Assembly (NCBI GenBank): GCA_000165345.1
Contig: CM000436.1
Coordinates: 928,001 to 992,000, forward strand
Reading direction: 5' to 3'
Length of the DNA: 64,000 nucleotides
How positions within the stretch are numbered: position 1 is the first letter of the stretch; each line of letters opens with the position of its first letter. Position numbers and translations under genes: made by a program. Shown here piece after piece: positions 1,135 to 62,277 of this stretch. Below the pieces are notes generated by a model that was not told the DNA's origin, searched no databases, and worked only from the letters and a program-made list of their open reading frames with translations.

Positions 1135-1345
1135 TACAGTAATTGTCAAGCTAAAGTTAATTACTATTAAGGTTTGCATTCTCACAAGCTTTTGTAATGA
1201 AATTTTATTTAAAGTGAGTTTCGGAAGAGAATAGGAGGGTTGCTCATATAATAGGTTAGTATTTTAGTATTGTATACCTTACGTCCAAAACTTACGGGTT
1301 TTGGCCGGGGAAAATCCATAACTAGGCTTGCTCGAATTGCTCAAA

Positions 1346-4300
1346 ATGAAGAAGGAAGAGGAAAACCTTCCAATTTATTCCTCACTAGAGGAATTTATAG
1401 AAATTAATGGAGGCGTTAACCTTATTAAAAAAATTCTAGTGGCCACAAGCGGACAAGCAGCAATAAAGTGTATAAGATCTATGAGGCATTGGGCATATGT
1501 TACATTTGGGAATGAAAAAGCTTTTGAATTTGTAGTAATGGCGACGCCTGAAGATATCCAAAGCAACTCAGAATCTGTGAGCGAAGCTGATTATTATGTT
1601 GATATACCGATGGGCCCAAACTATCATAACTATGCAAATATTGAAGTAATCGTTTCAATAGCAGAAGAACATGAGTGCGATGCTGTCTGGCCAGGATGGG
1701 GTCATGCCTCTGAAAACCCAGAGCTTCCAAAAGCTCTTTTAAGAGCTAGAAGAAAGATTATTTGGATTGGTCCTTCAGCAGAATCAATGGAAACTGTAGG
1801 GCAAAAAATCCAATCAAATATTATTGCTCAATCCGTACAGGTTCCGTGTGTTCCTTGGTCAGGAGATGGAATTTCTGTTAGTGTAGATAGGGATGGGCGC
1901 TTCACAGGTATTGTTTCTGATGAGCAACTTCAAGCAGCGTGCGTCAATAGCACTCAAGAATGTATTGACGTTTGTAAGCGAATTGGATTTCCTGTTATGA
2001 TCAAGGCTAGCTCAGGAGGTGGAGGGAAAGGTATCCGACTTTGCAGTTCCATGGAAGACCTAGAATCAAATTACAGACAAGTTATAAATGAAGTTAAAGG
2101 TAGCCAAGTATTTGTTATGCGAGCAGTTAATAAGTGTAGGCACCTAGAGGTTCAAGTACTAGGAGACAAATATGGTGACGTGTTCGCATTGAGCACAAGA
2201 GATTGCACAATACAGAGGCGTCACCAAAAGGTTATAGAGGAAGGGCCAGTTACAATTGTGAGTCAAGAGATTGTTAAGGAATTGGAGTTATCTGCAGAGA
2301 GGATGTGCAAAGCTGTGGGTTATTCATCTGCAGGAACTGTTGAATTTCTATATGATATTGAACGTTCATGTATAGCTTTTCTAGAAGTTAATGCCAGATT
2401 ACAAGTTGAACATGTTGTTTCTGAGGGAGTAGCTAACTGCAATATACCCGCAGCACAGTTACAAATTGCTATGGGAATTCCATTGAAGAAAATTCGTGAT
2501 ATTGAAGAATATAGAAAGCTAAGAAAGCAGGGGAATGCGCCTCCAAGGCATATTATCGCAGCAAGAATAACATCTGAACATGCTGAGAAAGGATTTACTC
2601 CAACATGTGGAGACGTGTTTGAAATTTCTTTTAGATCTTCGCAAACAGTATGGGGATACTTTTCAGTTGCTTCTCCAGGTCATATCCATCAATACTCCGA
2701 TTCTCAATTCGGACACATTTTTGCTTTTGGAATGAATAGAGAAGAAGCAAGAAAACATTTAATCATGGGTTTGAAGGGCTTAACCATCAGAGGTGAGATT
2801 AGAACAAATGTTGAAGCAGTTTGTAGAATATTAGAAAATCAAGATTTCATTACAGGCAACACATATACACAATGGCTAGAACACAGTGTCTATTTCTCTT
2901 CACCGTTAACTAAAAAAGTTACAATGCAGTATTTGAATGCAGTATTTGCAGCTGCATGTTTCACTGGGCTCAGATACTTCAAAGAAAGTGAGGATACATT
3001 TGTGAGGATGCTTGAGCAAGGACAAGCTCCAACCAGTATCAATATTCAGTATGAAATGACTCTAGTTCACAAGGGGATGAAGTTTATATGTGAGAGCCAC
3101 TTTATTGGTCCTGAACACGTCAGAATTATGTTGAATGGTAGTTCTGTTACAGCGAAGGTGCGTAATATTTATCCACCCAGTATGCAAAATGGGCGTGACT
3201 CGTGCTATTTAATATCAGGAGGTTTTGATGGTAGAAACAGGAAGGTTTTCTTTAAAAAAGATGCTGAAGATAACTTATTGGTTACATTTGATGGAACTAC
3301 TTACACATTCCTAAAAGAGCAAGACCCTCGTCAAGTTAGAGCTCCAGTTAGTGGTAAGTTAGTAAGGTGGTTAATACAAAACGGAGGTCAAGGTGAAAAG
3401 GGCCAGGCATACGTTGAAATAGAAATTATGAAAACATATATGCAGCTAACTCTTTCTCATAGTGGAGTTCTAGAGCATGCTAAACCTCAAGGCGCTTCAT
3501 TCAATGTGGGCGATATCCTAGCAATGTTAGAGCTCCCTAGTGAGTTTATCCCTCCTGCTTTGGAGCTATACCCGCTACCATTTCCAAAAATAGGAGGGGT
3601 AAAATCTCCAAAGCTTGCTCTTGAGACTTTTTGCTCTGGAGGATTTAGAGGAGGCCCGAGAATGGTAGCTTTAGCAAACTTTAGAGAAGGAAAGCAACAG
3701 CTTCTAAATGCACTTAATGGGTTTTTCCCAGCCTTTGAGGATGTTAGAAGCGCTCTTGGGATGTTCTACCATGTTTTAGACCCAATAATGCCATTTATTG
3801 AACTTCAAGAAGCTTGCGAAGTTGCCACACCGCTTATCAAAGTTACAGTTCGAAGAAAAATATCTGATTTGATAGAAGATGTATTTCAAACATTTGAGCA
3901 ATTAAGTAAAAATAGCTGGTATGAACAGTTTGATAGACAATTGAGCGCATTTATTTCTAATAATTCTTGCTTTGAATCTGATGTAATGTCAGACCAATGC
4001 TTGAATTCATTCGAAGATAATGATGATATCGAAGATGAAGGACAGCCACCAAAAGTTCTTCAAGATAAACGCCTAAGTTCTGATGGTTCTGAAATGCCAT
4101 CAATGCTGCTTTCAAACAAAGCTGATGAGCTTGACCCAAAAAATGCGAGCTTCGCACAGAATAAGAAGGAATTAGCCAAAGAAATATTTGTAAATGAGGC
4201 CGAACAAAAAAAAAGTTTTGAAAATTTTCTTGGTACTAATATATATTTGAAGAACCATTCAAAAAATATTAGATCGGCATCTGATTTAGAAATATATATA

Positions 4301-7300
4301 TTGGACTGCTTAAAGATAGTTAGCGATATTATAGAAGAGTCTATACAAGATTCAGATAATGAGAATATTTCCGTCGACGAATTCGTCGCTATAAGAAATC
4401 AGTATGATCCATTAATTCATATAATAAGAAGAAATGAAAAGGGGAGATGGATGAGACTAATGTACGAGCTGCATGAAATTATTCTAAAGTATATTGAAAT
4501 AGAAAAGTTATTTGAAGAACGCTCCTCACTTGTCCCAGCACGCATTATCCCAAGCCTTAGAACGGAGTATGAGCTCCCTGAACTAATGCAAATGGGCCGT
4601 TCTCACCAACAGTTGAGAGTGAAGAATGAAATTATGGAGGAAATCGCAAAAGAAATGGCTAACAATCCATCTTTACTTCAGTGTACTGCTCCATTCAGAG
4701 ATACAATCCATCAAATAGCTGAATTGACATCAACAGAGTACACAAAGGTGGCAGGAGCCTTTAGATACGTATTACTTATGAAAGAGAATGTTACAACAAC
4801 AACTCAAATACAGTCTGTTACAAAAAAAATATTTGAGTATAGTCAGTTAATTTCACTAGCTCAGACACATGGTCAACATCTTATTTCGATTGCTAATACT
4901 CCTTCTTCACCTCTTCAATACCCAATAAATGCAACTCCATCATTATCTACTTGGAGTGGTATTCCAAATTTAGGAAATAGCCAACAGACCTCCTTGTCAA
5001 ATATTATTGCAGACTTCACTAATTTCCCTGATTTCACACTTTTGGCATGCATTGGCCACCCAAATCCAATTATTGGTAAGTTAGCCTTTGAAATATATAT
5101 ACGTCGTCATTATGAAAGATGTGGCTTATCATTTTATGCTATAAAGAGCAGAGGGGAGGCATGGGATAGCTCTGTGGATATTAGCACCGTTGGGAATAGC
5201 AGTATGCTAATGACAAGTTGCCCAGACCTTAAGGGAGCGGTTCCATTAAGAGGAGAAATCCAGAACTTTAACAATATTTTGGGGGTGTGGACACATAATG
5301 CCTTAACAACATCATCGTTTTTCCAAAATCAATGTGATCCTTTAAGGTCAAATACTTTAAATATCCCTGCAATACAAAATAATGTGGATCAATATAATCA
5401 AAATGAAAACAATTCTAAAGGTAGAACACTAAGCATATTAGAATCAAATAATACATCAAAAAATATGAGCTCAAAGTGCCATGTAAAAGGGGCAATACAT
5501 ATTGAAAATAGCCGTTGGAAAAGCATGCTAAATGCATTTAGTGGGCAAAGCTTAAGCAGCATTGCAGATGACTTGTTGGAGGAGTCTCTTCCCATTCAAA
5601 CCAGTATTGGGCTTTATTTTGAATCTATATCTGATTTCCAAGACAGATTTGAACAGTGTGTTGATGAATTGAAAATCTTACATGGGTTTTTCCCCCAAAT
5701 TTCTTCATCTGTTGATTCTATCGTCATGTTAGTTATTTTGTCTAGTTTTTCCAATGGCGAGATCACTACTGAGTCGGAAGTGGCTTCGATTAATGATGAA
5801 AATGATTCCTCTTCCATTGAAACTCAATCAAACTCAAGGGACATAATAGAGATTCTTAAAGGAACTATTAACAAACACCAAGAAAAACTCTCTAACAATA
5901 ACATACACATGATTTCATTTACAATAGCTCCTTATTCAGATCAAAACAAACCTGAGTCACTTTCTGCAAGCTTAGTTTATCTAAAAACTCCTGTTCATTA
6001 CCATTTCAGGTCTAAAAAGGGAATTCCAATTTATAAATACAATTCTCAAGATCTGGAATCTAACTTATCTTTACAAGATAGCCTAATGAATCAAGCTGAA
6101 AGTGTTGAAATGGAAGATTTGGAGAACAACTATTTTATTGAAGAACCATTTATTAGAAATATTCCTAGTACTTTACTTTCTACACTTGAACTGAAGAGGT
6201 TGCGTTACTTTACAATAAAGTCAATTCCTACATCAATTTCAGGGATAAATTTATATGTTGGTACACCAAGAGAACTTTGTTCCGGTTATTCTGTTATTGG
6301 TAAACGCAAAGAAGCCGAAAACAAGGAAAACAACTCTTCATTGAAAAATGGAAACTCAAATATTAGTAAATCTCACGAATCTGATTCAGGAAAAAATGTC
6401 AAACTTTCTGAATCAAATACTTCGGAAAAGCCTAATTATTCTGGCCCCCAAACCAAAAGAATCTCAACAAAGGAAATGGAAGGTGAAAATCTGACAAATA
6501 AATCTAACAAGACTTTAAGTGCAAAACCAGTTACAAGCAAAATTTCTGGATATAATAAACAGAGAAGATATTTCATAAGAGTATTAGTTCAACATGAATG
6601 CAGTGAGTTATACTTTGAGGAACAGGAAAGATACTTTATAGCAGCCTTAAGTACTTTAGAGTCTTGGTTATCTTTTGACCAAAACTATTCGAATACAAGT
6701 TCAAGCACAGTTTCAAGAGGTCATACAGGTCTTAACCATCTTCTTTTTACTTCTGTTGGGGTTTTAAATGATAAAAACTCAGGCTATATTACAACCAGCA
6801 TGGCAGAAGAAGCAGCAAGAACATTAGTTCAGCGATATTCGCAACGAATACAGCAGAGTTCACTACAAACCATGGAGTTCCGCTATATTCAAAGGTCAGT
6901 ATATCAAAAAGATAGTAATAACGTTGTTGTGCCCGTTCGTTTTGTGGTAGATAACCCAACAGGGCAAGCAATTAGATTACGCAGTTTTGTTGAAATAAAG
7001 AATCCCACAACTAGTGGAGGAAAAGTGTTTGCAGCTATAGACTCTAAACAGTCATTCTTAAACTTTGTATCCACAAGCAGATCTGACAAAACTTTCAGCT
7101 TACCTGGGCTTCAACAGTCTAAAAGCCTAAAAGAAATCTCTAATCTTAATAAAGGGTCTAAAATTCTGACAATTAATGAAAATATGGTTCCAAATTTGGC
7201 TTTATATCAACATGAACACATTTATGACGGGAAACCTCTGGATATTCCTCATCCTTTAATTGGAAAAATTGATCAGAAAAGGTATCAGGCTGCAGAGTTG

Positions 7301-9523
7301 AATACGGTTTATATATATGATTTCTTGGATCTATTTGAAGAAGCAATTAAGAGTTTGTGGAATAAATGCCCAAAATACTTTGTTACAACGCCTTCTAGTG
7401 TTTCGCTTTCTAAATCAAACATAAAATCAGCAAGAGCAAATGGTTCTACTACAGCAGGAATCTCAACTAATTGTGAATCGGGCTTTGAACAATCTAGTGG
7501 AAAGACAGCATTTTTGCCCAATAAACTCTTAGAGTATGTTGAATTGGATATCAATAAGGATTCAGGAGAACTAGAATGCGTTAGTAGAGAGCCTGGGAAT
7601 AACACCTGTGGAATGGTTGCATGGTGTATTACTATGCATACTCCAGAGTACCCAAAGGGTAGAAGAGTGATTCTTATTGGAAATGATATTACTTATCAAA
7701 TGGGGACCTTTGGCATTCAAGAGGATCTTTTGTTTCAAAGAGCATCGGAATACGCAAGAAGCTTAGGAATCCCTAGAATATTTATTGCAGCAAATAGTGG
7801 TGCTAGAATGGGGCTAGCGACGGAGGTTCAGAAATGCATGAAAGTTGAATTTGTTGATCCTGAAAACCCAGTTAAGGGATACAAGTATCTATATGTTACG
7901 GAAGAAGACTATAACAAATTTGATCTGCAGAATAGTATTAATTACGAAGTAATAGATCATCCTAAAGATGGGAAAATATACAAAATTACTGATGTTATTG
8001 GATCTCAGCTAGGACTTGGAGTTGAGAATCTCTCAGGAAGCGGAGGAATTGCAGGTGAAACATCAAAGGCATCTAAGTCGATTATGACAATTACATATGC
8101 AACTACTAGAACAGTTGGAATTGGTGCCTATTTAGCAAGGCTTGGTCATAGAGTTATTCAAAAAGCTCATGGAGCTCCAATAGTACTTACAGGATATCAG
8201 GCACTTAATAAGGTAGCGTCAAAAGAAATTTATAGCAGCAATGATGAATTGGGAGGTACAGAGATTATGGCAAAAAATGGTGTAACACACCTCGTTGTTA
8301 AAGATGACTTAGAGGGTTGCGTAGAAATACTTAAATGGCTGAGCTATGTACCTGAATGCGTCGGAGGAAGGCTACCAATAATGGTGGATCCAACAGATCC
8401 TATATATAGGAATATTACATACTCTTGTAATAGTAATACTGAAGACCCAAGATTAATGCTTACTGGATGCGTAGACTCAAGAGGACGTTGGCTATCTGGT
8501 CTCTGTGATAAAGATTCTTTCAAAGAAGTTATGAGTGATTGGGCGAAAAGCGTAATAGTAGGTAGAGGAAGAATTGGGGGAATACCTGTTGGGTTCATTT
8601 TAGTTGAAACTAGAGTTACTGAATACATTCAGCCAGCAGATCCAGTAATGCCACACACAAGTGAACTTAGAGTTACTAGGGCAGGACAAATATGGTTCCC
8701 TGATTCTGCATATAAGACTGCACAAGCAATTCGTGATTTCAATATGGAAGAACTCCCATTGATAATTCTTGCAAATTGGAGAGGATTTAGTGGAGGCCAG
8801 AAAGATATGTTTGACCAAGTCCTAAAGTTTGGGTCTTACGTAGTTGATGAACTTGTCAATTATAAACAACCTTGCTTTGTTTACATACCTCCAAAGGGAG
8901 AACTGCGCGGAGGAGCTTGGGTAGTAGTAGACTCAAATATTAATCCAGAATTCATTGAAATGTATGCCGACCCTACAGCAAGAGGAAGCGTCTTGGAAGC
9001 TGCTGGAATAGTTGAAATTAAGTTTAGAAGCAAGGCGCTTAAAGAATGGATGATGAGATTAGATCCAGAATTACTCTCCCTACAAGAGAAAGATCAACTA
9101 CTTCATCTTAAAGGCTATCCAATAGACTCTTCTGAAAGAAGCTCAATAAAAGAAAAGATTAATAAAAGATGCAGCTTACTTCATTCAGTTTATCACGCCG
9201 CTGCAATTCATTTTGCAGATTTGCACGATACTTCAAATAGAATGAAAGCTAAGCAAGCAATCCATGATATTGTTCAGTGGAAGAATGCAAGAGTTTTTTT
9301 CATTCATCGAATCAAAAGACAATTACTGCTTTTTTCTTTAAGGTCTGAAATTTCCCAAAAGCTTGGAATTTCTCTCACAGATTCTCAAAATGTGGTCTTT
9401 CAATGGGCAATACAAGACGGAATAGATCCAAATAATAACACTCAATTCATTCAATGGATTTGCCACAGTGCTAACATTATTGAACAGAGAATCTCTCAAC
9501 TATCTAGCTCTGATATAAGGTAG
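1346..9523 (+). CDS. ACC: acetyl-CoA carboxylase, multidomain eukaryotic type (biotin carboxylase + BCCP + carboxyltransferase), about 2726 aa
   Basis: ORF 1328..9523 starts with TTG. The first ATG is at 1346 (MKKEEENLP). Biotin carboxylase motifs are present (PVMIKASSGGGGKGIR, EVNARLQVEH), as is the biotinyl-lysine region (YVEIEIMKTYMQL). The C-terminal half is a carboxyltransferase (GGAWVVVDS, ANWRGFSGGQKDMFD). Low-complexity N/S-rich inserts are typical of apicomplexan orthologues. Confidence 0.95.
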   Translation: MKKEEENLPIYSSLEEFIEINGGVNLIKKILVATSGQAAIKCIRSMRHWAYVTFGNEKAFEFVVMATPEDIQSNSESVSEADYYVDIPMGPNYHNYANIEVIVSIAEEHECDAVWPGWGHASENPELPKALLRARRKIIWIGPSAESMETVGQKIQSNIIAQSVQVPCVPWSGDGISVSVDRDGRFTGIVSDEQLQAACVNSTQECIDVCKRIGFPVMIKASSGGGGKGIRLCSSMEDLESNYRQVINEVKGSQVFVMRAVNKCRHLEVQVLGDKYGDVFALSTRDCTIQRRHQKVIEEGPVTIVSQEIVKELELSAERMCKAVGYSSAGTVEFLYDIERSCIAFLEVNARLQVEHVVSEGVANCNIPAAQLQIAMGIPLKKIRDIEEYRKLRKQGNAPPRHIIAARITSEHAEKGFTPTCGDVFEISFRSSQTVWGYFSVASPGHIHQYSDSQFGHIFAFGMNREEARKHLIMGLKGLTIRGEIRTNVEAVCRILENQDFITGNTYTQWLEHSVYFSSPLTKKVTMQYLNAVFAAACFTGLRYFKESEDTFVRMLEQGQAPTSINIQYEMTLVHKGMKFICESHFIGPEHVRIMLNGSSVTAKVRNIYPPSMQNGRDSCYLISGGFDGRNRKVFFKKDAEDNLLVTFDGTTYTFLKEQDPRQVRAPVSGKLVRWLIQNGGQGEKGQAYVEIEIMKTYMQLTLSHSGVLEHAKPQGASFNVGDILAMLELPSEFIPPALELYPLPFPKIGGVKSPKLALETFCSGGFRGGPRMVALANFREGKQQLLNALNGFFPAFEDVRSALGMFYHVLDPIMPFIELQEACEVATPLIKVTVRRKISDLIEDVFQTFEQLSKNSWYEQFDRQLSAFISNNSCFESDVMSDQCLNSFEDNDDIEDEGQPPKVLQDKRLSSDGSEMPSMLLSNKADELDPKNASFAQNKKELAKEIFVNEAEQKKSFENFLGTNIYLKNHSKNIRSASDLEIYILDCLKIVSDIIEESIQDSDNENISVDEFVAIRNQYDPLIHIIRRNEKGRWMRLMYELHEIILKYIEIEKLFEERSSLVPARIIPSLRTEYELPELMQMGRSHQQLRVKNEIMEEIAKEMANNPSLLQCTAPFRDTIHQIAELTSTEYTKVAGAFRYVLLMKENVTTTTQIQSVTKKIFEYSQLISLAQTHGQHLISIANTPSSPLQYPINATPSLSTWSGIPNLGNSQQTSLSNIIADFTNFPDFTLLACIGHPNPIIGKLAFEIYIRRHYERCGLSFYAIKSRGEAWDSSVDISTVGNSSMLMTSCPDLKGAVPLRGEIQNFNNILGVWTHNALTTSSFFQNQCDPLRSNTLNIPAIQNNVDQYNQNENNSKGRTLSILESNNTSKNMSSKCHVKGAIHIENSRWKSMLNAFSGQSLSSIADDLLEESLPIQTSIGLYFESISDFQDRFEQCVDELKILHGFFPQISSSVDSIVMLVILSSFSNGEITTESEVASINDENDSSSIETQSNSRDIIEILKGTINKHQEKLSNNNIHMISFTIAPYSDQNKPESLSASLVYLKTPVHYHFRSKKGIPIYKYNSQDLESNLSLQDSLMNQAESVEMEDLENNYFIEEPFIRNIPSTLLSTLELKRLRYFTIKSIPTSISGINLYVGTPRELCSGYSVIGKRKEAENKENNSSLKNGNSNISKSHESDSGKNVKLSESNTSEKPNYSGPQTKRISTKEMEGENLTNKSNKTLSAKPVTSKISGYNKQRRYFIRVLVQHECSELYFEEQERYFIAALSTLESWLSFDQNYSNTSSSTVSRGHTGLNHLLFTSVGVLNDKNSGYITTSMAEEAARTLVQRYSQRIQQSSLQTMEFRYIQRSVYQKDSNNVVVPVRFVVDNPTGQAIRLRSFVEIKNPTTSGGKVFAAIDSKQSFLNFVSTSRSDKTFSLPGLQQSKSLKEISNLNKGSKILTINENMVPNLALYQHEHIYDGKPLDIPHPLIGKIDQKRYQAAELNTVYIYDFLDLFEEAIKSLWNKCPKYFVTTPSSVSLSKSNIKSARANGSTTAGISTNCESGFEQSSGKTAFLPNKLLEYVELDINKDSGELECVSREPGNNTCGMVAWCITMHTPEYPKGRRVILIGNDITYQMGTFGIQEDLLFQRASEYARSLGIPRIFIAANSGARMGLATEVQKCMKVEFVDPENPVKGYKYLYVTEEDYNKFDLQNSINYEVIDHPKDGKIYKITDVIGSQLGLGVENLSGSGGIAGETSKASKSIMTITYATTRTVGIGAYLARLGHRVIQKAHGAPIVLTGYQALNKVASKEIYSSNDELGGTEIMAKNGVTHLVVKDDLEGCVEILKWLSYVPECVGGRLPIMVDPTDPIYRNITYSCNSNTEDPRLMLTGCVDSRGRWLSGLCDKDSFKEVMSDWAKSVIVGRGRIGGIPVGFILVETRVTEYIQPADPVMPHTSELRVTRAGQIWFPDSAYKTAQAIRDFNMEELPLIILANWRGFSGGQKDMFDQVLKFGSYVVDELVNYKQPCFVYIPPKGELRGGAWVVVDSNINPEFIEMYADPTARGSVLEAAGIVEIKFRSKALKEWMMRLDPELLSLQEKDQLLHLKGYPIDSSERSSIKEKINKRCSLLHSVYHAAAIHFADLHDTSNRMKAKQAIHDIVQWKNARVFFIHRIKRQLLLFSLRSEISQKLGISLTDSQNVVFQWAIQDGIDPNNNTQFIQWICHSANIIEQRISQLSSSDIR

Positions 9524-11293: not shown

Positions 11294-11822
11294 TTATATT
11301 GAGTCTGTTATTTTTACAGAGCAAGGCATACTCCAAGGGTGATACTCATTATTGTCCGATATTTTTCCATTATATTTAATAATCTATTATGATAGATTAT
11401 GCGATAAATTAATTTATACGAATTAATGATAATTTACGCAACTTACCTTTGGAACGTTCTCAAAAATTTCAAAGTTTTCAAAACTTTCTTCTTTATCGTC
11501 ATTATTAGAATCTTTTTCTATATTCCGCATGAAGTTAATTTTGATGTTATAATATTGCAATTTTTACTAACTTACGACTTGAGTTATAAATTTTCTCAAC
11601 AGTTTTAATATGTTTTTTCATTACATCCTTTGCATCTTTTTTTACACCATCTCTAAATTGTCTATCCTTCAACTTCTTTTTCTCTATACTTTTGTCTCTT
11701 CTCTCCTTCTTTCTCTTTTGGAATCCATTAACAAATGATTCTTTTTTTTTCATGTTAAAAGTGATCAAAGTTCCCTTTCGGCCGTGTTTGGTCAAAATAG
11801 ACTTGGAATATTTATCCAACAT
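11294..11822 (-). CDS. small basic-N/acidic-C protein, proposed 3 exons: join(11822..11576, 11517..11447, 11383..11294), about 135 aa
   Basis: ORF 11547..11822 (ATG at 11822) reads through AGTC|GTAAGT at 11575..11570. A 58-bp intron ends at AG 11519..11518 (pyrimidine-rich ..ggaatatAG). The 71-nt exon 2 encodes QKDSNNDDKEESFENFEIFENVPK and ends AAG|GTAAGT (11446..11441). A 63-bp intron ends at AG 11385..11384. Exon 3 encodes IIKYNGKISDNNEYHPWSMPCSVKITDSI and stops with TAA at 11296..11294. All phases are consistent (1, then 0). Confidence 0.55.
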
Positions 11823-12178: not shown

Positions 12179-13384
12179 ATGAATCGATTAACTGAAAACG
12201 ATCAGGAACTTAAAACTATTCTTGATGGAGTTATGATTAATGACTGTATTAAACCATTTAGGAAGGTTTCAGAAAAATTAGAAGAGTTTGATCAATTTGC
12301 AACAGAATATGGAAATTCTTTAGATTCTAAAATTAATCAGATGCTAATTTCACTACGGAAAGATGAAATTAATTGCTTAAAATTAGAAATGAGGCTAGAA
12401 AAAATTCTTGAGTTAGTTACTGAGCAAATGCGTAAAGGCAACCATGAAGGTAAGGAAGACAAAGCACCAACTAAAAATATGGTAAAAACAGAAGAAATAA
12501 ACAAAAAAATCAAGAAAAGTGATGAAAAACAAAAAGAAAGTGGTGAAGAAAGAACTCTTAGCAGTTCAATGAATAGTATGGAATCTGTTCCTGTCGATCC
12601 TTTGATAAAAAGAACTCTTGAATTCGAAAACACTCAGAGGAAGATATATGAAAATCCTAACAATACCAAAGGATGTAGTATGCATGTTGAAGAAGAAACC
12701 TGTGATGAAATCAGTGTGAAAATAAGTACTGATGGTTCTGCAAGAAGCTTACTTTCGAAGTATATTAATGGCGAAAATAAGCATGGGAATGAAGTCAGAG
12801 AAAAAGATCCAAATGCAATTAGAAGAGAAAAGGTTGATAATATAAAAAGAACAGTCAAGCCTATAGCTCGTGATAACGGTAATAAAGGCAAGTGTTGTGC
12901 TTTTTGGAAGAAATGGTGCTGTTGTTGTCTATCAGATAAGGGCCCAACAAAATCGGGCAACTATTATAAGATGTCTATACAAGAATGGAAAGATTTTCTG
13001 GCATCAATTGAACCTAAAGATAAGAGATATAAGGACTACTGTAACATGTTAGAGAAAAGAAACGATTCTTATAATGTTGATATTGAAGGGTTACCCCCTT
13101 TGATTGTTGAATATTCATCTTTAAATGCAAAGGCTGGGGGAAATTATTATGGAAATCAAATGTACAACATGGGCCAAAATTATCAATATTATTATCCTGT
13201 AAATAATCAAGGTTATTATAATTATGGGCAATATTATTATGACGCTAGAAGTCAGGTCTCTAATATGTCTTATGTTAACAACAACCCAAATTATTTGAAT
13301 TTTAATAAGAAAGGTAAAAACATGCAAGAAGATGTTAAATGTAGACAAATGGTACATACAAAGATGGGAATAAGAAATGGTTAA
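12179..13384 (+). CDS. hypothetical protein with Cys cluster (CCAFWKKWCCCC) and Tyr/Asn/Gln-rich prion-like C-terminus, 401 aa
   Basis: ATG at 12179. It has a K/E-rich coiled-coil N-half, a CC..CCCC cluster typical of palmitoylation sites, and a C-terminus GNYYGNQMYNMGQNYQYYYPVNNQGYYNYGQYYYD. Confidence 0.5.
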   Translation: MNRLTENDQELKTILDGVMINDCIKPFRKVSEKLEEFDQFATEYGNSLDSKINQMLISLRKDEINCLKLEMRLEKILELVTEQMRKGNHEGKEDKAPTKNMVKTEEINKKIKKSDEKQKESGEERTLSSSMNSMESVPVDPLIKRTLEFENTQRKIYENPNNTKGCSMHVEEETCDEISVKISTDGSARSLLSKYINGENKHGNEVREKDPNAIRREKVDNIKRTVKPIARDNGNKGKCCAFWKKWCCCCLSDKGPTKSGNYYKMSIQEWKDFLASIEPKDKRYKDYCNMLEKRNDSYNVDIEGLPPLIVEYSSLNAKAGGNYYGNQMYNMGQNYQYYYPVNNQGYYNYGQYYYDARSQVSNMSYVNNNPNYLNFNKKGKNMQEDVKCRQMVHTKMGIRNG

Positions 13385-61180: not shown

Positions 61181-61358
61181 TTATATGGTTTTACACGACA
61201 TGTACATGTCATTTTTGGCCTGAAGTGTGATTGAATAATAATTTTTACTAAAAACAAAAATAGATAGAAATTGAGATAATTTTTTCAAAAGTAATACATG
61301 GAATCTTGTGGGAGTATCACAGAAGAGTGTATTTGAGAATTATACGTCTAAAGAAAGA

Positions 61359-62162
61359 ATGGCTTCTCTCAATGATATTAGTAAAGGTTCACAGGGGAGC
61401 CAGTTAATAGATTTAAATGGCTCTGAGAAGAGAAATGACTATATGGACTACATGTCACATTTGCAAAGTAGTGCTGCTCAATTGAGATATGAAAATAGTG
61501 TTTTAAAGAATGATAATGCAAATTTAGTATCAAAGTTGGACAGAGCTGTGAGTAAGAGTAGAAATGGAGTAGAAATACCAGAAAATGCAACAACAGCAGA
61601 AATTGCGGAGGCATTTGAAAAGTTGAATGATGAAAACTGCAGATTAAAGAGAGAAATGGAACGTTTGATACGATCAAATACTAGATATAGGGTTGCAATG
61701 CAAAATAGAGATCCTAGCTTAATTCCCTCTGAAGAACAAGATAAAAGTTTTTTTAACTCTGATGACTCTGGAGGAAGGTTATGCCAGTGTGAATATATAC
61801 TTAATGAAATTCTAGAAGCAGTTTCTTATAAGTTAGAAACTTATGAAAAGCATATCTGGGAACATAGATTAGCTACTTTAACTAGTGAAAGAGATGAAAT
61901 TGCTGTCCAGAATATTTCACTAGTAGATAGGCTAGCTGAAATTGAAGCAATTATTAAAGTAGATCATGTTCTTGCTGAAAGATTTAATGTTCCTCTAGAA
62001 GGTTGTGATGAAAAGAATCAAATATTAACTTTACACCGTAAGTTGGGCTTTGCATTGGATGTAAACCAGCAGCTCGAAAGAAGATTAGCTTTTGAAACGC
62101 AGCTTTCAAGATCTTGGCAAAGTAATATGCATACAATTGTTAGTGAGGTAAGTTTTTCCTAA
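61359..62162 (+). CDS. hypothetical coiled-coil protein (gene A), about 268 aa
   Basis: ORF 61308 starts GTG. The first in-frame ATG is at 61359 (MASLNDISK). Heptad-rich. It ends ..TIVSEVSFS*, but the last codons read GAG|GTAAGT (see findings for the alternative fusion model). Confidence 0.5.
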   Translation: MASLNDISKGSQGSQLIDLNGSEKRNDYMDYMSHLQSSAAQLRYENSVLKNDNANLVSKLDRAVSKSRNGVEIPENATTAEIAEAFEKLNDENCRLKREMERLIRSNTRYRVAMQNRDPSLIPSEEQDKSFFNSDDSGGRLCQCEYILNEILEAVSYKLETYEKHIWEHRLATLTSERDEIAVQNISLVDRLAEIEAIIKVDHVLAERFNVPLEGCDEKNQILTLHRKLGFALDVNQQLERRLAFETQLSRSWQSNMHTIVSEVSFS

Positions 62163-62277
62163 AAAGTTTGCCATTTGCTAACTTTATTGTGACCAATTTC
62201 TAATTTCCCGCCACCCCACATTGCAATTATTACATGCATTTGCAAATTATTTGCACATTTTATAGTTAAGGCAATAT

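Follow-up and report, generated by a model that had tools for sequence, protein, structure and literature searches.

The minus strand of Cryptosporidium parvum chromosome 8 carries a 91-codon open reading frame (11822..11547 in the window analyzed here, a stretch of 64,000 nt from contig CM000436.1 of assembly GCA_000165345.1), and the locus raises the question of whether this ORF is a complete small gene or the first exon of a longer, spliced one. The window is AT-rich (~29-39% GC) and its genes are dense and mostly without introns. A donor sequence (...AGTC|GTAAGT) lies in frame after base 11576, and the final nine codons of the ORF run past it, the first of these (CGT) straddling what would be the junction between exon 1 and intron 1. 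A sequence-only reading of the window had proposed that splicing at this donor, and at a second, joins the ORF to two further exons and yields a protein of about 135 amino acids. The model was rebuilt by script from the window, and every coordinate, the phases (1, then 0), the absence of an internal stop codon and the 135-aa product were reproduced. The parts of the three-exon model are as follows.

11822..11576, minus strand: exon 1, 247 nt, with the ATG at 11822..11820; codons 1-82 plus 1 nt
11575..11518, minus strand: intron 1, 58 nt, GTAAGT...ATAG, phase 1, 24% GC, with its AG at 11519..11518
11517..11447, minus strand: exon 2, 71 nt, 3' end AAG|GTAAGT, encoding the acidic linker QKDSNNDDKEESFENFEIFENVPK
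11446..11384, minus strand: intron 2, 63 nt, GTAAGT...AATAG, phase 0, 22% GC
11383..11294, minus strand: exon 3, 29 codons (87 nt) plus TAA, encoding IIKYNGKISDNNEYHPWSMPCSVKITDSI, a genus-conserved C-terminal box

Both introns have GT...AG boundaries, consensus-like donors, short length and low GC content; C. parvum introns average 22% GC, with a mean length of 84-99 nt (Isaza et al. 2015, Table 1, PMC4637869). Intron 1 starts with GTAAGTTA, ends with AATATAG and carries a conserved branch-point-like element (xxAACT), and intron 2 starts with GTAAGTTG and ends with CATAATAG. The spliced coding sequence of 405 nt plus the stop codon encodes the protein MLDKYSKSILTKHGRKGTLITFNMKKKESFVNGFQKRKKERRDKSIEKKKLKDRQFRDGVKKDAKDVMKKHIKTVEKIYNSSQKDSNNDDKEESFENFEIFENVPKIIKYNGKISDNNEYHPWSMPCSVKITDSI. 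Its exon 1 portion is the basic N-terminal Nop25/NOL12 box (KHGRKG..ITFN..FVNGFQKRKKERR..QFRDG), and the gene is referred to here as NOL12. A stop codon lies in frame three codons upstream of the NOL12 ATG, which is itself unchanged across a four-species DNA alignment. The description of the product as having a basic N-half and an acidic C-half is borne out by the calculated pI, which is 10.4 over residues 1-82 and falls to 4.5 over residues 83-135. Without splicing the product is 91 aa long and ends ...SSRKLVKIAIL*, and with intron 1 alone removed it ends ...VPKVSCVNYH*.

The splice motifs by themselves go only a short way towards establishing this structure. GTAAGT is not enriched in the whole window (29 sites, with 25.1 expected), and an extension of at least 53 codons was possible in 58 of 2000 shuffles of the downstream sequence (~3%, p ~0.03). 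The splice-motif pattern alone is thus modestly beyond chance and is weak evidence, and the case therefore rests on comparative data. Background-level GTAAGT and shuffles that extend equally far are what would be seen if the splice-like motifs and open frames had arisen by chance in AT-rich sequence, with no gene beyond the 91-aa ORF. However, the same structure recurs syntenically in five other species with conservation of a coding type, which refutes the chance reading, and the exact 135-aa protein has already been deposited; the probability that chance produced the pattern is therefore judged to be close to nil. The gene model is certain, and that certainty comes from the comparative and database evidence and not from the motif pattern.

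Orthologous loci were compared in C. ubiquitum, C. canis, C. ryanae, C. muris and the species represented by Logan run SRR31860986 (the Logan species). The gene structures are as follows.

C. parvum: exons of 247, 71 and 90 nt; introns of 58 and 63 nt
C. ubiquitum: exons of 247, 74 and 90 nt; introns of 57 and 67 nt
C. canis: exons of 247, 68 and 90 nt; introns of 60 and 63 nt
C. muris: exons of 235, 59 and 90 nt; introns of 98 and 53 nt
C. ryanae: exons of 348 and 132 nt; one intron of 114 nt (intron 1 absent, position of intron 2 kept)
Logan species: exons of 247, 62 and 90 nt; introns of 56 and 75 nt (model built in this analysis)

All six species have intron 2, at the same position, and all but C. 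ryanae have intron 1; in five of the six, the C-terminal box is encoded by its own 90-nt exon. The length of exon 2 shifts by multiples of 3 only, whereas intron lengths differ by non-multiples of 3. Alignment of the DNA of four species showed no variation in either donor (..|GTAAGTT; CCAAAG|GTAAG) or in the acceptor of intron 2 (AATAG|AT). Removing both introns restores a single open frame in each of five species compared and retention truncates it, a stop being reached within 2-24 codons when either intron is kept, with tails that differ in length and sequence. The genomic setting is also shared: at all five orthologous loci Dim1 lies on one side, with a gene of 233-327 aa adjoining NOL12. 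On the other side a gene of ~400 aa is found in C. ubiquitum and C. canis, and the remaining loci have larger or different genes there.

The structure extends to C. muris CMU_005930 (XP_002142019.1, 127 aa) and C. andersoni cand_004490, which likewise have three exons, a 90-nt last exon and the C-terminal box, with an intron 2 identical in position and phase to that of C. parvum. They differ from the C. parvum gene in overall identity (36-40%), in the lengths of their introns (98 and 53 nt), in their first donor (GTATGT) and in two extra C-terminal residues (DF). The C. ryanae orthologue (GCA_009792415.2; 1501..2094 of the retrieved stretch) encodes 159 aa and has a continuous 348-nt exon 1; its intron 2 is 114 nt long and 52% GC. 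The missing intron 1 of C. ryanae is a case of intron loss or gain within the genus.

The distribution of substitutions distinguishes the proposed exons from the proposed introns. For C. ubiquitum, identity to the C. parvum DNA reaches 0.82 (exon 1) and 0.84 (exon 3), with 0.66 and 0.57 in the two introns; the corresponding values for C. canis are 0.71 and 0.80 in the exons, and 0.43 and 0.36 in the introns. Within exon 3, differences from C. parvum at codon positions 1/2/3 number 1/0/12 in C. ubiquitum, 1/2/14 in C. canis and 8/5/17 in the Logan species. This bias towards third positions is the signature of a sequence that is translated in the spliced frame under purifying selection, and shows exon 3 to be such a sequence.

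These observations bear directly on the possibility that the unspliced ORF of 91 aa represents the true protein, or else an isoform made by regulated intron retention and having the basic N-terminal domain only, the downstream exons being untranslated. Such a product matches the Pfam Nop25 family by itself (31.6 bits) and is the deposited model of C. hominis TU502 (XP_667903.1). However, an untranslated exon 3 leaves both the third-codon-position pattern and a PWS.PC box that is invariant out to C. muris unexplained, and the tails formed by read-through of this type are unconserved (RKLVKIAIL, RKLKKMTRFEL, SKFGATVLTK, RKFVPRDIYSC and GMLNN). A role for the 91-aa form as the product of the gene is therefore considered very improbable.

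The conservation of exon 3 counts equally against a two-exon gene, in which intron 1 alone is removed and translation stops in ‘intron 2’. Such a gene would resemble the deposited C. meleagridis (113 aa) and chipmunk-genotype (127 aa) models, but the tails that it would produce are also unconserved (VSCVNYH, VRCIQIHCYFNIY, VSPKTNAFQ, a 24-residue tail in the Logan species, and VR), and it is at odds with a donor and an acceptor of intron 2 (CCAAAG|GTAAG and AATAG|AT) that do not vary among four species. A newer C. meleagridis record (KAK9171066.1) is also 135 aa long. The two-exon structure is accordingly regarded as scarcely credible. The explanation preferred here, and almost certainly the correct one, is that the locus is a three-exon, minus-strand, chromosome-8 orthologue of NOL12/Rrp17 in C. 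parvum, from which two AT-rich spliceosomal introns are removed to encode a 135-aa protein.

A search with the spliced 135-aa protein, a check that the sequence-only reading had itself suggested, returned a Pfam match (described below), full-length orthologues and identical C. parvum deposits. The identical 135-aa C. parvum entries are QOY40137.1, WKS79632.1, WRK34135.1, KAL5367113.1 (= CPHLJ_8g3705) and UniProt F0X5U5_CRYPV, and the deposited name is ‘Nucleolar protein 12’. The annotated gene span in assembly GCA_048859185.1 is 529 nt, equal to 11294..11822, and in a comparison of ~2.5 kb around the gene with that assembly (CM109968.1) one base differs, at window position 11401 in intron 2. 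The deposited C. parvum ‘Nucleolar protein 12’ is thus the same gene, the sole difference from GCA_048859185.1 being this intronic SNP. It is from this near-identity, and from the matching deposited proteins, that the window is assigned to C. parvum chromosome 8. When all one- and two-intron models were enumerated by brute force, one GT..AG model only gave the deposited C. parvum protein; because no other model yields it, the exon structure is the same as that of the deposited gene. The window base at 11401 also differs from that in Logan DRR729244, and a stretch of 2.3 kb in Logan DRR729207 is identical to it.

Besides C. parvum and C. muris, five species have models that are full-length and share the C-terminus. 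The protein-collection search returned orthologues from C. tyzzeri (135 aa, 96% identity over 100% coverage, named Nucleolar protein 12), C. ubiquitum (136 aa, 76% identity) and C. canis (134 aa, 67% identity). The C. parvum and C. hominis proteins are identical at 131 of 135 residues (0.97), with four residues differing. QOY40137.1 and the C. tyzzeri entry presumably belong to the IOWA-ATCC annotation work. In the C. parvum IOWA-ATCC annotation, introns are stated to be 100% RNA-seq supported (Baptista et al. 2022, PMC8744675). The earlier re-annotation of 2015 drew on full-length cDNA and RNA-seq to add 74 genes and 451 introns, and its new models needed cDNA or RNA-seq expression support (PMC4637869). 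Transcript support thus comes from statements of two papers about their annotations as wholes rather than about the gene individually.

The 2015 supplement assigns PF09805, ‘Nucleolar protein 12 (25kDa)’, to cgd8_new_12, one of the 74 added genes, and gives for it and its C. hominis orthologue an identity of 0.97 and a dN/dS of 0.19 (Isaza et al. 2015, PMC4637869). On the basis of chromosome, Pfam family and the identity of 0.97, rather than of coordinates, cgd8_new_12 is very probably the gene at 11294..11822. The ortholog table of the same supplement runs cgd8_3680, 3690, 3700, 3710 (PMC4637869). The step from cgd8_3700 to cgd8_3710 suggests an original numbering without a gene between them, and the 2004-era numbering apparently skipped the gene that lies between the 279-aa and 401-aa neighbors. 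A search for papers naming ‘cgd8_3705’, or Cryptosporidium together with ‘nucleolar protein 12’, found none, the supplement table being the only mention. Exact spliced-junction strings for both junctions gave 0 matches in JGI metagenome contigs, a result that is uninformative as transcript evidence, and the Logan contigs that contain the 91-aa ORF are 10-200 kb long and are genomic sequences, not transcripts.

Neither the gene nor its two introns nor its assignment to the family is new. The sequence-only reading had called the gene cryptic, a label that does not hold, as the structure is carried by current public annotations. Its expectation that ORF calling would report only the truncated 91-aa protein was correct: this is the length of the C. 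hominis TU502 model, which is unspliced, and of the prokaryote-style calls on Logan contigs. Other orthologue models are also incomplete or read through. The older C. meleagridis model and that of chipmunk genotype I both run into intron 2, and the models of C. xiaoi (110 aa) and C. felis (185 aa) are without the conserved C-terminal box. These short or read-through models look mis-annotated rather than biologically different.

The guess from sequence that the product is a small nucleolar or ribosome-biogenesis protein agrees with its family membership. Against Pfam PF09805 (Nop25, ‘Nucleolar protein 12’) the 135-aa product scores 39.8 bits (E 8.1e-10; gathering cut-off 22.5), residues 16-95 aligning to profile positions 8-91 of 138; the score of the 91-aa ORF given above is for the same profile. 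An hhalign comparison with distant NOL12s, from a fern, the green alga Mesostigma, Perkinsus and an MMETSP protist, gave 98% probability (E 3e-13) over columns 14-74. Sequence matches in the PDB were NOL12 (8ia0_Ca) and Rrp17 (7nac_5 and 7naf_5), chains that we take to be components of pre-60S particles.

The best-described members of the family provide a framework for interpreting the protein. Yeast Rrp17p, a pre-60S factor rich in lysine and arginine, is reported to have Mg2+-dependent 5'-3' exonuclease activity; 5.8S(S) and 25S rRNA both depend on it for their 5' ends, and human NOL12 complements the yeast deletion (Oeffinger et al. 2009, PMC2806520). Its N-proximal conserved domain C1 (residues 28-70) is required for activity, and its negatively charged C-proximal region, C2, contributes RNA binding (PMC2806520). 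Mutant data show that F43 and R70 matter in yeast, as do R46, T41, D32 and D38; of these, T41 is nearly universally conserved and is needed for activity (PMC2806520).

The C. parvum protein shares with Rrp17p/NOL12 the N-terminal box ..(I/V)TF(D/N)..(F/Y)(V/L)xGF(Q/H)KRK.., as well as the order of its parts, in which the box is followed by a long Lys/Arg-rich helix and then by an acidic region. In a HMMER alignment to 7nac_5, yeast F43, R46 and R70 are kept (as F34, R37 and R57), whereas T41, D32 and D38 are changed (to N32, N23 and S29). There is no doubt that the C1 box is there, but conservation does not extend to the residue with a putative catalytic or phospho-site role. The negatively charged region that follows the basic domain is found only in the spliced product, in which exon 2 contributes QKDSNNDDKEESFENFEIFEN, and by analogy this acidic segment corresponds to the negatively charged C-proximal region of the family. 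The C. parvum protein is also small: at 135 aa it is much shorter than yeast Rrp17 (235 aa) and the 8ia0 NOL12 chain (227 aa). Alignment to 8ia0_Ca and 7nac_5 showed that it has no basic C-terminal tail: it ends ...PWSMPCSVKITDSI, and the KKKxKKFRY-type C-terminal regions of those two chains have no counterpart in it. Such a tail is typical of yeast, fungal and other members and lies outside the Pfam definition. Catalytic equivalence with yeast Rrp17 is uncertain because of the change of T41 to N32, the small size of the protein and the lack of the basic C-terminal tail.

An AlphaFold2 model, built from a shallow alignment of four sequences, contains a single confident helix at residues 24-84 (pLDDT ~80-88), with a mean pLDDT of 64 and values below 55 for the C-terminal half. 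This one-helix model fits an extended ribosome-assembly factor, the remainder of which would be unstructured in isolation.

In place of the basic tail, the protein has a box at residues 107-135 with the genus-conserved pattern (K/R)(I/L)(I/V)(K/R)(Y/F).G ... PWS(M/V)PC(S/T)(V/I)(K/Q)I(T/S)(D/Q)(S/N)I. Residues P122, W123, S124, P126, C127, I131 and I135 are invariant in eight Cryptosporidium proteins, and the core PWS(M/V)PC(S/T)(V/I)(K/Q)I shows little or no variation among the eight, down to 36% overall identity. The box was considered as a motif of the NOL12 family as a whole and was rejected as such: the hhalign match covers columns 14-74 only, and the 41-residue C-terminal peptide has no Pfam match. 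A homologue search from the fern NOL12 yielded three proteins, too few for a better profile. We suspect a resemblance between the box and a Y..HP...TVTV-type stretch in animal NOL12, and make no claim for it. The genus-specific C-terminal box is the only mildly unexplained feature of the protein.

The surroundings of the gene provided some further observations. The features concerned are as follows.

1328..9523, plus strand: acetyl-CoA-carboxylase-like ORF, 2731 aa
9690..10118, minus strand: Dim1 ORF, 142 aa
11951..11961, minus strand: E2F-like box TTGGCGGGAAA, ~130 nt upstream of the NOL12 ATG, the sole exact match in the window

The E2F-like box lies in the divergent intergenic region between NOL12 and the gene at 12179 on the plus strand. 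With at most one mismatch allowed, the window contains eight such sites, compared with 0.57 expected. The sequence GGCGG[GC]AAA is found between -122 and -141 in three other intestinal species (C. ubiquitum, C. canis and the Logan species) and at -279 in C. ryanae, and is missing upstream of the C. muris orthologue. The box is a possible promoter element, which may serve NOL12 alone or both NOL12 and its divergent neighbor at 12179. At the other end of the gene, the NOL12 stop codon (11296..11294, minus strand) and that of the convergent 279-aa gene (ORF end 11228, plus strand) are 65 nt apart, and the 3' UTRs of the two genes must therefore be very short or overlapping.

A second split gene of similar style lies at 61308..63122 on the plus strand, with a frame that is open throughout and encodes ~541 aa.

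61308..62147, plus strand: first ORF, ending ...IVSE|GTAAGT
62148..62265, plus strand: first intron, 118 nt, ending TATAG
62266..62347, plus strand: middle exon, 82 nt
62348..62418, plus strand: second intron, 71 nt, GTAAGT...TTCAG
62419..63122, plus strand: last segment, in which the frame continues

An E2F-like box at 62204..62214 (minus strand) falls inside the first intron of this gene.

Under the three-exon model, the NOL12 pre-mRNA would lose its 58-nt and 63-nt GTAAGT...AG introns by ordinary spliceosomal splicing. By analogy with yeast Rrp17p and human NOL12, the protein would bind nucleolar pre-60S particles via its long basic helix (residues ~24-84) and may assist 5'-end maturation of 5.8S and 25S/28S rRNA, whether by 5'-3' exoribonuclease activity of its own or by binding RNA as an assembly factor. 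A more speculative idea, which is unlikely though not negligible, is that Cryptosporidium possesses a minimal NOL12 (127-159 aa) in which the genus-specific box replaces the basic tail and T41 has been lost; the protein would then be a lineage-adapted factor that docks on pre-60S particles without being catalytic, and production of a 91-aa form with C1 only might be tuned by intron retention.

The gene is already present in the public annotations of C. parvum, C. hominis, C. tyzzeri, C. ubiquitum, C. canis and C. muris, and its recovery here carries little weight for biology. It has some value as a calibration, an exact deposited gene model having been recovered from sequence alone by a reader without tools. 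It may also be of use in curation: the conserved C-terminal exon could serve to correct the public models of C. hominis TU502, C. meleagridis, chipmunk genotype I, C. xiaoi and C. felis.
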